From NCBI RefSeq assembly GCF_000172995.2, contig NC_014729.1, forward strand, positions 1,200,001 through 1,232,000: a DNA stretch of 32,000 nt, written 5' to 3'. Both the position numbers and the translations under genes were made by a program. The notes beneath the pieces are model-generated. The model was not told where the DNA came from. It saw nothing but the letters and a program-made list of their open reading frames with translations, and did not search any database. Numbering within the stretch: position 1 is the stretch's first letter; each line of letters opens with the position of its first letter. This DNA is from Halogeometricum borinquense DSM 11551. GTDB lineage: Archaea; Halobacteriota; Halobacteria; Halobacteriales; Haloferacaceae. Positions 12,305 through 17,329 of this stretch are shown here, one piece after another.

Positions 12305-15300
12305 ATGTGTATGAACGGTTCCGGGCCGGCCTCGATTTCGGACATTCAATGCCGGCACGTCGACACCTACGAAAGTAATCCGGATCGAATTGAGGCTGAC
12401 GCGGGGACTGAACGTCAGGACCGCGCTGACTATGAGGGTCGGTTCGTCTTCGAGTTGCTACAGAACGCCGTCGACGAGATGGACGACACCGGCGAACCAC
12501 GGGTACGGTTCGAACTCACGGAAGACTCCCTCCTCGTTGCGAACAATGGTGCGGCGTTCTCCTTCGAAGACCTTTACGCACTGACGCTCACGACCCGGAC
12601 GACAAAAGCTGGCGAGACGACTATTGGCCACAAGGGCCGAGGGTTCACGTCCGTTCTCGGCGTCACGGATAACCCGAGTGTATACTCAGAGAACGTTCAG
12701 GCGCAATTCAATCGAAAGACGACAGCAGATCTCCTGAAGGGCAACGATAAGATATCTGCTGAGCGGGACGACGCACTCGCTGCTGAACAAGTTCCCTTGC
12801 TCTGTCTGCCACACGAGACAACAACCCCGCCCCGAGTGCGAGCACTTCTGAATGATGGATTTACGACCGTGTTCAAACTCCCACTTCGAGACCCTGCGCG
12901 GCACCGGGAGTCAATCCATACCAAGCTCGAAGGCCTAGACGCAAACACGGTCGCACTGCTGCCACAGCTTCAAGAGATCGAAATCAGCAGTCTCGGGCAA
13001 GACTGGGAATGGGAGATTGCCCGACACGATATGACCGGCTGTGACGCAACGCTCATAGAGCTCACCACAGACACAGCGGACGGTCCAGAGGAGACACGCA
13101 CCGACTGGTTCTGCCTGTTCGAACAAACCGATCTTGACCAAAAGCAGATATCGGACCGCGCGGATCTGACCCAGCCAGAGGTGGATGCGATGGGAGAATT
13201 GAGCGTTGGTATCGCGTTCTCCGTGACTCCTGGGGACTCTCCTCCCTCTCTTCGCCCGAAGGGTTGGAAACTCAAGCCCGTGTACGGTGAGACTCACAAC
13301 CAACCACCGTACCTTCACGTTTTCCTCCCGACGAAAGAACGCAGTCCAATCCCAGCGCTTGTGACTGGGACTTTCCAGTCAGATACGTCTCGCCGAAATC
13401 TCACACTCAACTACGATGACTCGCGCGGGTACGACGGCCAGTTCAATGCCCTTCTGTTCATGGCAGTCGGCGAGCTCCTCGCAGACAGTGTCATTTCATT
13501 CGTTGAGCAGTCCGCAACATCGGAGGGGGACTTCCTCACCACGCTGGACCCGTCGTTGGGGCAAGGCCGGGACTGGTCGTTCACCAAAGGAACTGTCGAG
13601 GGCTGTCTCTTCGACGCGATCAAGACCCGACTCACATCCGTTGAATTCCTTCCGAGTGCGCGTGCTAACCAACGAGTTGCCATCGATGACATCACAGTGC
13701 CCCCAACGTCCGCCCAACTCTCGGACTTAGGTACCGACTTTGTGTCTCTCCTTCAGTCCGGGGACAGTCAAGCCGACGACCGGCCGCACGTTCCTTCAGC
13801 GGAATTATCCACTCACCAGCACGCCCAGACGCTAGTTGCGTACGGTGCGTCACAGTACGACGCGTCATCGGTACCTGAAGCCCTCGCTGCTGTTTCTGTG
13901 GATCCTCCCCTCCGCATCGTCGACGAGCGTGAATTCGGCCGAACCCCCCCAGATGACGACGAGCCGTGCCGCCTCACGGTCGATCCGGTACTTGTCTATC
14001 TCGTTCGTCTGCGCAAAACGCTGGAGAGCGACGAGGACCGTTCAGCCTTCGACGATGCGTGCCGCCGACACGACGTGTTCCCCGTTGAGATCAAAACTGA
14101 CCAAGAAGGAACGAAGCACGCGATACGCGGTTCGAACGAGGCCGGCACGATCTTCATGCCACCAGAGGGCGACATTACAGCAGACGCCTTACCGACGCTC
14201 GAATTTCTTCCGCGTGACCTGTACCACGGCACGAACGCCGACCGCGCGGCACCGCTTCGGGAAGACGCACTCCCGGCGAACTTCGACGCCGACGTTCAGA
14301 CGATCTGGGACATCAATGACTACCTGTTCTCACAAGTGTTCGACACCGCAATCAGCCCCCATCTCCCTGGACCAAACTCACCAAATGCGGACCCGTCTAT
14401 CCTCGCATCCGGCGGAGTGTTACGAACGATCCGTGAGATGACGGACGTCCAGTCACCTGAAAACGACCGCAGCCCAGAATCCCCACTACTCTACCAATCT
14501 GCGAAGAAGCCATACTCGGCCCTGGCACAACTTCCCGTCCCGACACAGCCAACAGAGGACGGCACAGTCGAGTGGCATCCTGCACACCGCGTGTACTTCA
14601 GTTCGGATTGGCAAACCACGCTCAACCGCCCCGAAGACGCCTACATCGAACCATTCCTCAACGCCGTCGCCGCCCAAACTGACTCTGAACGATTCGATCC
14701 GAAGTTCCTAGCTTCACCTTCGTGGTTCACTACTGACAAAGACGAAGAGCGCGTAGAGACGCTCAAAGCTTGGGCCGCGTTCTTCTCGTGGCTCGGCGTG
14801 TTCGAGCATCTCCGCCCGCTGCCACTATTCGCGCCCGGTGAACAGCAGACGTATCGTCAGACACAGGGTCTCAGTCAACCGTCGAATTCGACGATTACAG
14901 CGTCCGAAGATCTCCAAAGAGACGGTGTCTACTCCGTCGATCACCGATACACGGGACTCACCGACGTCGAATGGCAGTCGTACCGCGACCACCTCGTGGA
15001 TGCGGTAACCTCGGAAATCCCCGACCCAGACGAGCAGTACCTGTTCCAAGTGAATTCTCTAGAGTACGCGTCGGAAATCCTCTCGGCCGCAAAACAATCG
15101 GGCGAGGTTGGGAGTCGTCTCCTCAGGCACCTCACGCGCTGGTGGGATCACGGTCTCTCCAAGCGACGACACGCAACTGTCGCGGAGTTCACCAACGAAC
15201 GGTGGCGCGGCAGTAACGTGAGCTATGTGTTCACGCACGATGAACAATCGGCGCTCGGCTGGAACCTGTGGGTGTGGCAACTCCGACAGTCATCTTGGGT

Positions 15301-17329: not shown

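Follow-up and report, generated by a model that had tools for sequence, protein, structure and literature searches.

What a protein of 1674 amino acids (aa), with an ATPase-like domain at one end and a nuclease-like domain at the other, might do for a haloarchaeon is the question raised by a stretch of DNA from Halogeometricum borinquense DSM 11551 (contig NC_014729.1, positions 1,200,001 to 1,232,000 of the forward strand). The window, as this whole stretch of 32,000 nucleotides (nt) is called here and in whose numbering all coordinates are given, contains the gene at 12305..17329 on the plus strand. An original prediction, made from the DNA letters before any database was searched, had proposed an ATP-gated nuclease of the GHKL plus DUF3883 type acting as sensor and effector in a defence island, and had added that, as far as known, no defence function had been demonstrated for such an architecture. 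The outline, a defence protein that combines ATPase and nuclease and is encoded in a defence island, proved right, but the architecture is not functionally uncharted and the ATPase subtype had been imprecisely named. According to the analysis described below, the protein probably belongs, as a haloarchaeal representative, to the TmtA family; TmtA by itself makes up the Tiamat anti-phage system, which acts without a partner gene.

Membership of the family was assessed by a significant match to a TmtA hidden Markov model that reaches beyond the ATP-binding motifs. The open reading frame (ORF) is real, comprises 1674 codons plus a stop codon, and its translation contains all the predicted motifs at the expected places. 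Its product matches nine PADLOC TmtA models, the best being PDLC03964 (E value 2.1e-67), which is matched by aa 18-1083 over profile positions 20-883 of 1538, or 56% of the model length. Bacterial proteins that carry both the Pfam SACS and NOV_C domains (P0084, P0087, P0056 and P0071) are matched by TmtA models over practically their whole length, which identifies the GHKL plus NOV_C combination as the TmtA architecture, and within the aligned clade P0047 gives end-to-end matches to PDLC03972 and PDLC03965. The predicted two-ended arrangement of a GHKL-type ATPase and DUF3883/NOV_C is supported by these profile matches, which do not bear out the claim that the architecture lacked a demonstrated defence function. 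Judged by its sequence, the protein is best placed in a divergent haloarchaeal TmtA clade, and hence in a known defence family rather than in a new system. The clade counts 47 full-length homologues of 23-95% identity, several of which are named 'Protein NO VEIN C-terminal domain-containing protein' in UniRef. In the literature, Tiamat (Millman et al. 2022) is listed among the defence systems of unknown mechanism in a 2026 review (PMC12926258), is classed as a single-gene PD-(D/E)XK system (bioRxiv 10.1101/2024.10.26.620412), and is reportedly present in 20 of 382 complete archaeal genomes according to Millman et al., as cited in PMC13321033, where a PADLOC call of Tiamat in a Halococcus strain is also given. 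The literature search returned no mechanistic paper on Tiamat or TmtA.

The N-terminal end of the protein carries a Bergerat-fold ATP-binding domain of the sacsin/Hsp90 type, located at about aa 46-310 (12440..13234, plus strand) by NCBIfam, Pfam SACS, a family profile and Foldseek. Four ATPase motifs are read on the same strand, namely ELLQNAVDE (motif I, aa 50-58, 12452-12478), NNGAAF (motif II, aa 80-85, 12542-12559), IGHKGRGFTSVLGVTDNPSVYS (IGHKGRGFTS..., motif III, aa 107-128, 12623-12688) and TTVF (motif IV, 12863-12874). The N-terminus passes the thresholds of NCBIfam NF047352, a sacsin N-terminal ATP-binding-like model (E 4.8e-19, 68.6 bits for a cut-off of 50), and of Pfam SACS PF25794 (34.8 bits for a cut-off of 32.8), and SACS is matched in all 29 of the aligned clade members, the set on which the clade-level Pfam counts for both SACS and NOV_C rest. 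The predicted Bergerat ATPase is upheld by these matches, but HATPase_c_3, the family named for it, was not matched in the Pfam scan, where the newer SACS models were found instead; the HSP90 signature PF00183 was not matched in that scan either. When the family profile was compared with PDB sequences, sacsin SR1 (5v47) was recovered with an E value of 4e-12 and a motif-by-motif alignment; the match to HtpG (E 0.019) is confined to the ATP-binding motifs, that to TRAP1 is likewise weak, and nothing was found past about residue 236. With the single protein as query, the PDB sequences yielded marginal sacsin matches and nothing else.

Structural comparison extends this placement beyond the reach of sequence profiles. 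The AlphaFold2 model of aa 1-1100, obtained with the family alignment as input, has a mean predicted local distance difference test score (pLDDT) of 88.5 and a predicted template modelling score of 0.73. Its Foldseek matches in the PDB are Hsp90, GRP94, TRAP1 and HtpG (E 2.6e-7 to 1e-5, top probability 1.0), together with sacsin SR1 (5v44, E 5.9e-5), and, since the alignments span 560-790 columns of full-length Hsp90, GRP94 and TRAP1, both the N-terminal and the middle domains are covered. Neither MORC nor MutL occurs among the top 50 matches, all of which are Hsp90-family proteins (Hsp90, GRP94, TRAP1, HtpG) or sacsin. A MORC/MutL-type ATPase was rejected on account of these fold neighbours and of the missing HATPase_c_3 match, and the MORC-type assignment initially given to the GHKL ATPase falls with it: the N-terminus has an Hsp90/sacsin-type ATPase fold.

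Directly after the ATP-binding domain, Foldseek places an Hsp90-middle-domain-like module at about aa 311-460 (13235..13684, plus strand), which holds R363 (codon 13391-13393). This arginine occurs without exception in the 59 archaeal and bacterial sequences and is situated, in the AlphaFold2 model, in the loop between the strand 352-355 and the long helix 380-402. The catalytic-loop arginine of Hsp90 (R380) and of sacsin (R474) shows the same strand-loop-helix arrangement (PMC9880540), and by analogy R363 is a candidate for the catalytic-loop arginine of the TmtA-like protein. Around the ATP site, N80, G82, K101, G108, K110, G111, G113, F114, S116 and T188 are invariant in a 38-sequence alignment of 23-89% identity, in which E50, N54 and D57 are nearly invariant, these last three being invariant in the 29-sequence set. 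The ATP-site residues stay invariant or nearly so when bacterial relatives are added (59 sequences), and in this set E50, which corresponds to the catalytic Glu, is nearly invariant.

At the C-terminal end, a NOV_C/DUF3883 PD-(D/E)XK nuclease-like domain occupies aa 1482-1674 (16748..17326, plus strand), as indicated by Pfam NOV_C at clade level, by residue conservation and by the structural model. NOV_C is matched in 27 of the 29 aligned clade members (best E 4.7e-15), and the motifs FDVLT (with D1563), CIELK (with E1582 and K1584), NEW (1598-1600) and YYLYV (1611-1615) are all present. Conservation defines a putative nuclease site formed by E1500, D1563 (16991-16993), E1582 (17048-17050) and K1584 (17054-17056), all four being invariant in the clade (38-sequence alignment), while D1563, E1582 and K1584 remain nearly invariant with bacterial TmtA included (59 sequences). 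Such conservation of the D/E-x-K triad and of E1500 argues for an active nuclease under selection and, together with the clade-level matches, supports the domain that had been predicted. The AlphaFold model of aa 1091-1674 (mean pLDDT 76.6) consists of a folded part (1091-1370), a disordered linker containing an ordered mini-motif, and, at about aa 1480-1640, a compact domain whose pLDDT exceeds 90 and whose elements follow the order α-β-β-β-α-β. DUF3883 has been identified as the catalytic domain of a characterised endonuclease, YenY4I (PMC6765204), and was termed a novel REase (restriction endonuclease) domain by Anantharaman et al. (PMC3710099).

The conserved triad also bears on the idea that the nuclease-like domain is inactive and that the protein serves, in the manner of sacsin, as a chaperone or in proteostasis. 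The 230 N-terminal residues do align with sacsin SR1, and the N-terminal plus middle fold is Hsp90-like; against this, the triad and E1500 show no exchange within the clade and almost none in bacterial TmtA, DnaJ, HEPN and repeated SRR units are all missing, and the gene is accessory and mobile rather than core, all of which makes a chaperone of this kind highly improbable.

Between the two catalytic ends, the polypeptide is largely specific to the family. A confidently folded α/β region (aa 461-1090, 13685..15574, plus strand) is seen in the aa 1-1100 model, and the TmtA model PDLC03964 reaches into it as far as aa 1083; no Pfam match, no NCBIfam match and no named structural relative were found for it. 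It is followed, directly 5' of the linker, by a further α/β domain (aa 1091-1370, 15575..16414, plus strand; pLDDT mostly 70-96) for which Foldseek found no PDB match, and matches to the TmtA models continue to about aa 1300 in the haloarchaeal relatives P0038 and P0028. The description of some 1200 residues without a nameable motif holds for Pfam and NCBIfam, but not for the PADLOC TmtA models, which cover about aa 130-1083. An exhaustive phmmer search with aa 461-1370 against 1.84 billion representatives recovered only 71 clusters and no alternative architecture carrying this segment; the full-length clusters are all TmtA-sized (1540-1670 aa) and match at the same position. That the middle region could be a second or third sacsin repeat in degenerate form was tested with hhalign and rejected, as all probabilities were at or below 13.5%.

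The predicted linker of about 110 residues is likewise confirmed by its composition and is predicted to be disordered. This low-complexity, acidic segment, rich in Gly, Ser, Thr, Pro and Asp, spans aa 1371-1481 (16415..16747, plus strand), with pLDDT below 50 outside the mini-motif; over aa 1372-1481 (16418..16747) it contains 57% G/S/T/P/D and 10% hydrophobic residues, compared with 31-38% and 28-32%, respectively, in other segments. Embedded in it is the ordered and conserved mini-motif SSRIPSIDAVTRIGDRRIAESLRN (aa 1424-1447, 16574-16645, plus strand; pLDDT 73-87), in which G1437 is nearly invariant, and which could serve as a docking or autoinhibitory motif. A low-complexity segment of 40-100 aa is common at the same position in the bacterial relatives, and it is longest in the haloarchaeal clade.

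The distribution of the homologues is that of a stand-alone, horizontally mobile accessory gene. Apart from the window, the neighbours of the homologues include DISARM-like genes, an AspBHI-type HNH enzyme and DUF499/DUF1156 in Haloprofundus; McrB-lid, HerA-NurA, Mre11/Rad50-like, NERD-UvrD, HNH and TumE genes in a Natrialbaceae genome; AbiEi, Fic and toxin-antitoxin genes in Halococcoides; integrase, HNH and resolvase genes in Halorubellus; integrase and transposase genes on a Halomarina plasmid; a restriction endonuclease and DUF4209 on Natrinema pJ7-1; and an HNH homing endonuclease, Orc1/Cdc6 and PLD genes in Haloparvum, where the gene appears frameshifted. The defence-island setting originally proposed is borne out in the window itself, where pAgo, PLD, PD-(D/E)XK, Mrr and HNH nucleases and an SMC/LmuB-like ATPase are found nearby. 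The TmtA-like gene is the only gene common to the six loci compared, and no neighbour gene is conserved across the nine independent contexts. Neither the AAA_14/DUF4143 gene upstream nor the 410-aa ORF downstream could be upheld as a conserved partner, as they travel with the TmtA-like gene only in the close pAgo module or never.

Copies are carried by at least 11 haloarchaeal plasmids, and some of these are fragmentary. The Halobaculum magnesiiphilum copy is broken by an IS1595 transposase, all that a plasmid of the halophilic archaeon DL31 retains is the nuclease-like C-terminal domain (aa 1482-1674), which is 97% identical to that of the window protein, and Halapricum and Haloterrigena plasmids hold internal fragments of the gene. 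In Haloparvum sp. PAK95 (L012:4715-9710) two overlapping ORFs, 4715-7432 and 6546-9710, share the gene between them, either as a frameshifted pseudogene or through an assembly error. A different combination was observed in proteins P0058-P0081, bacterial and mainly actinobacterial, of about 1460-1590 aa, in which the sacsin-type ATP-binding domain is fused to DEAD/Helicase_C/ResIII in place of NOV_C, indicating that the sacsin-type module has been reused with other nucleic-acid enzymes.

Several observations have to be weighed against the assignment of the protein as a Tiamat ATPase-nuclease. The adenine-contacting Asp of Hsp90 is replaced here by Asn80, and nucleotide binding by sacsin domains has been described as debated (PMC9880540), so that ATPase activity of the TmtA-like protein can only be inferred. 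Scanned alone, the C-terminal 575 residues (aa 1100-1674) gave no PADLOC match, and the NOV_C assignment therefore had to rest on Pfam at the family level, PF13020 being sub-threshold in this copy (E 0.0038, 17.7 against 22.1 bits). A Foldseek search with the C-terminal 584-residue model gave nothing significant; Hjc resolvases came best (E 0.39, template modelling score 0.43-0.45), followed by NgoMIV and EcoRI, likewise non-significant, and since Hjc represents a minimal PD-(D/E)XK fold, its match is of little functional weight. As regards gene context, defence, toxin-antitoxin or mobile-element genes accompany the homologue in 8 of 9 independent contexts, as a raw count. The sole counter-example is Halobaculum saliterrae (L011), whose full-length homologue (59% identity) has OpuAC, Cache/HAMP, PAS-GAF histidine kinase and glycosyltransferase genes as neighbours and no recognisable defence gene among them.

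Some of the same observations could be explained if the protein were not an immune factor but an ATPase-coupled structure-specific nuclease, acting for instance on junctions, with a role in DNA repair or recombination or in plasmid maintenance or exclusion. The Holliday-junction resolvases of the Hjc type are the best, if weak, structural neighbours of the C-terminal domain, many copies are plasmid-borne, the Halobaculum copy has no defence neighbours, and Mre11/Rad50-like and HerA-NurA genes adjoin in the window and in locus L003. Such a role would sit poorly with the patchy distribution, the fragmented and IS-interrupted copies, the highly variable neighbourhoods and the invariant nuclease triad, as well as with the clear homology to a family catalogued as anti-phage, and it is regarded as unlikely.

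For the preferred reading, that of a Tiamat protein working alone, the mechanism that we infer extends to ATP hydrolysis, to the coupling of ATPase and nuclease, to DNA as the substrate and to what is sensed. The Hsp90/sacsin-type Bergerat domain (E50/N54), with the middle-domain-like module supplying R363, would bind and hydrolyse ATP and thereby operate a conformational switch; the approximately 900 family-specific residues (aa 461-1370) may provide the scaffold that recognises the invader; and the C-terminal PD-(D/E)XK domain, attached through the disordered linker of about 110 residues, would act as the effector, cutting DNA once released or positioned by the switch.

Two versions of this scheme differ in what would be recognised, DNA or a viral protein client, and they are considered about equally likely, each being possible without being the expected outcome. 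In the first, the same family would restrict DNA in a Type IV-like manner without any partner, the middle region directly reading a modification or an unusual structure of DNA and the ATPase driving clamping or turnover, so that foreign DNA is cut and the cell survives. MutL, GyrB and MORC are GHKL ATPases that work as ATP-operated DNA clamps, which fits such a role, as does the lack of a methyltransferase or any other conserved partner gene and the presence of Mrr_cat and HNH_2 Type IV-like genes among the neighbours; moreover, YenY4I, the only biochemically characterised DUF3883 enzyme found, is modification-dependent (PMC6765204). The ATPase, however, resembles the protein-handling Hsp90/sacsin branch and not the DNA-clamp branch of MORC and MutL, no DNA-binding surface was identified, and the Pfam and NCBIfam scans detected no PUA, SRA, DUF3427 or other known modification-reader domain.

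In the second, the protein would be an abortive-infection sensor in which the Hsp90-like module and the middle region bind a viral protein client, and ATP-driven closure frees the tethered nuclease to degrade DNA, that of the host included. The Hsp90/sacsin-type fold, the long disordered tether and a single-gene sensor-effector logic are consistent with it, the conserved mini-motif could be an autoinhibitory plug, and 'chaperon-associated domains' are named among the new systems in the Millman preprint, where Tiamat itself appears in a figure and nowhere else. Client binding, however, is hypothetical, and the role given to the mini-motif is pure conjecture.

A gene adjacent to the TmtA-like gene in more than one place is that for a PLD/Aq_aa27 protein, which adjoins it or lies within 5 kb of it in three independent loci (the window, L005 and L012). 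Homologues of about 700-770 aa were observed at L005:7759-9924 and L012:14902-17202, both aligning over the full length with 28-31% identity (E 3e-92 and 6e-65), and no pAgo occurs among the genes called in L005. This recurrence could be an accident of their location in defence islands, or the two genes could be truly associated. It has been considered in this context whether the haloarchaeal clade forms a distinct Tiamat subtype, in which the aa 1091-1370 domain, the long acidic tether and the mini-motif make up a device for nuclease autoinhibition and release, or in which the protein cooperates with the PLD/Aq_aa27 protein of about 700 aa. Such a subtype is rather doubtful at present; if true, it would open a first way into the mechanism of Tiamat and into the control of nucleases by Hsp90/sacsin-type ATPases.

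In the window, the TmtA-like gene ends a pAgo-containing module of about 15 kb that is common to different haloarchaeal families. Positions 2296-17329 are 94.6% identical to Halogeometricum limi, and the segment from the pAgo operon through the TmtA-like stop codon recurs chromosomally in Halosolutus gelatinilyticus and, with 81% protein identity, on a plasmid of Salinigranum marinum, the pAgo block, the AAA_14/DUF4143 gene and the TmtA-like gene having 81-95% identity with H. limi, Halosolutus gelatinilyticus and the Salinigranum marinum plasmid. Downstream of the block, the genes are unrelated in each of the relatives.

The pAgo operon occupies window positions 1-10274 on the minus strand and consists of a long pAgo with a Piwi domain (7587-10274, 895 aa, PADLOC pAgo 1091 bits), followed by a PLD family gene (PLD/Aq_aa27, 5403-7523, 706 aa), a UvrD_C-like gene (3337-5397, 686 aa), PDDEXK_1 (2435-3340, 301 aa) and an AddA-like UvrD/PD-(D/E)XK gene that runs past the left end of the window. 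An AAA_14/DUF4143 ATPase gene (10533-12209, plus strand), matched by the PADLOC 'phage defence candidate' model PDC-S01 (E 1e-16), lies 95 nt upstream of the TmtA-like gene on the same strand. Directly after the TmtA-like stop codon starts a two-gene cassette (17330-20132), composed of a 410-aa ORF with no Pfam or PADLOC match (17412-18644, plus strand) and a convergent Mrr_cat restriction-like gene (18650-19996, minus strand). The cassette is missing from H. limi and Halosolutus, where its flanks are conserved, and no convincing flanking repeats were found around it; as there is no tRNA gene in the window, there is no tRNA-linked integration site. Further downstream are a 255-aa ORF without a match (20189-20956, plus strand) and, on the minus strand, an SMC/Rad50-like ATPase of 1238 aa with a weak LmuB match (20989-24705, E 5e-16), an overlapping Metallophos gene of the Mre11/SbcD-like type (24542-25828, 428 aa), an HNH_2 gene (27041-28033) and a second Metallophos gene (28408-29790). 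The pair formed by the SMC/Rad50-like and Metallophos genes also adjoins the TmtA-like gene in Halosolutus.

The sequence upstream of the TmtA-like gene implies a dedicated promoter. The predicted TATATAT box was confirmed at 12282..12288 (plus strand), and of the two possible start codons, ATG 12305 and ATG 12311, the first lies 17-23 nt and the second 23-29 nt downstream of it. A similar TATA-like element occurs at the equivalent position in four of five orthologous upstream regions (GTATATAT, GTATATAT, TTATATAT and ATATTTAT), which is consistent with a promoter of the gene's own and with a haloarchaeal mRNA that has no leader or almost none. The encoded protein is strongly acidic, as expected for a halophile.

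While the Tiamat family was already known, what is added here is a member from a haloarchaeal clade and the placement of its ATPase in the Hsp90/sacsin rather than the MORC branch. The domain map names candidate residues for both activities: for the ATPase these are E50/N54 and R363, for the nuclease D1563/E1582/K1584. Archaeal defence systems have been little tested, and homologues are present in culturable haloarchaea, for example NJ7G_RS18145 on plasmid pJ7-1 of Natrinema sp. J7-2, a host of the virus SNJ1, which makes experiments feasible. For annotation purposes, haloarchaeal proteins of about 1600 aa described as 'sacsin N-terminal ATP-binding-like' or 'DUF3883 domain-containing' may be treated as TmtA-like defence candidates. 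The ATPase module is akin to the sacsin repeat of the human ataxia protein and probably to plant NO VEIN, and in view of this kinship a prokaryotic model could illuminate sacsin-type ATPase domains, a solved structure among the relatives being limited, in the PDB searches, to the sacsin SR1 domain.

Compared with known systems, the protein shares individual modules with several families. With the MORC and paraMORC GHKL ATPases of restriction-modification systems it has in common a GHKL ATPase in a conflict-system context, but its structural neighbours are Hsp90 and sacsin and it lacks HATPase_c_3. Hsp90, HtpG, TRAP1 and GRP94 resemble it in the fold of the N-terminal ATPase and middle domain, in the catalytic Glu and in the glycine-rich ATP-site motifs, whereas identity is only 10-13%, the lid is shorter in the TmtA-like protein and a nuclease-like domain has been added; the similarity is limited to the N-terminal and middle domains, with no sign of the Hsp90 C-terminal dimerisation domain. 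In the sacsin repeat (SRR/SIRPT; human SACS; PDB 5v44-5v47) motifs I-IV correspond one to one to those of the TmtA-like protein, and both have Asn at the position of the adenine-binding Asp of Hsp90, a short lid and, after the ATPase, a module like the Hsp90 middle domain in which an Arg is conserved. Sacsin, which serves proteostasis and the cytoskeleton in eukaryotes, has three such units, whereas the prokaryotic, accessory TmtA-like protein has one and ends in a nuclease-like domain; only a single SACS match was found in it, UBL, DnaJ and HEPN were not, and hhalign detected no internal repeat. The comparison with NO VEIN (NOV) is limited to the C-terminal NOV_C (PF13020), matched at the family level. 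NOV also carries a GHKL-type ATPase region and is a much larger, nuclear developmental factor of plants; the literature search on the NO VEIN ATPase yielded nothing usable. YenY4I/McaZI (PUA-DUF3427-DUF3883) and HmaA (Snf2-DUF3883) follow a comparable plan, in which a PD-(D/E)XK effector is placed C-terminal to a sensing or motor module and the genes lie in defence islands, except that the partner module of the TmtA-like protein is a GHKL ATPase instead of a modification reader or a superfamily 2 helicase. The match of the whole is with TmtA/Tiamat (PDLC03964-03972). The haloarchaeal clade is divergent, with 56% of the best model covered and a C-terminal third that has no PADLOC match, and its protein is strongly acidic and has the longest linker in the family; but the two share a length of about 1300-1800 aa, a sacsin-type GHKL N-terminus, a long family-specific middle region, a low-complexity linker and a C-terminal NOV_C/DUF3883 domain, all encoded by a single gene that, without a conserved partner, is found in most of the contexts compared near defence genes or on mobile elements.

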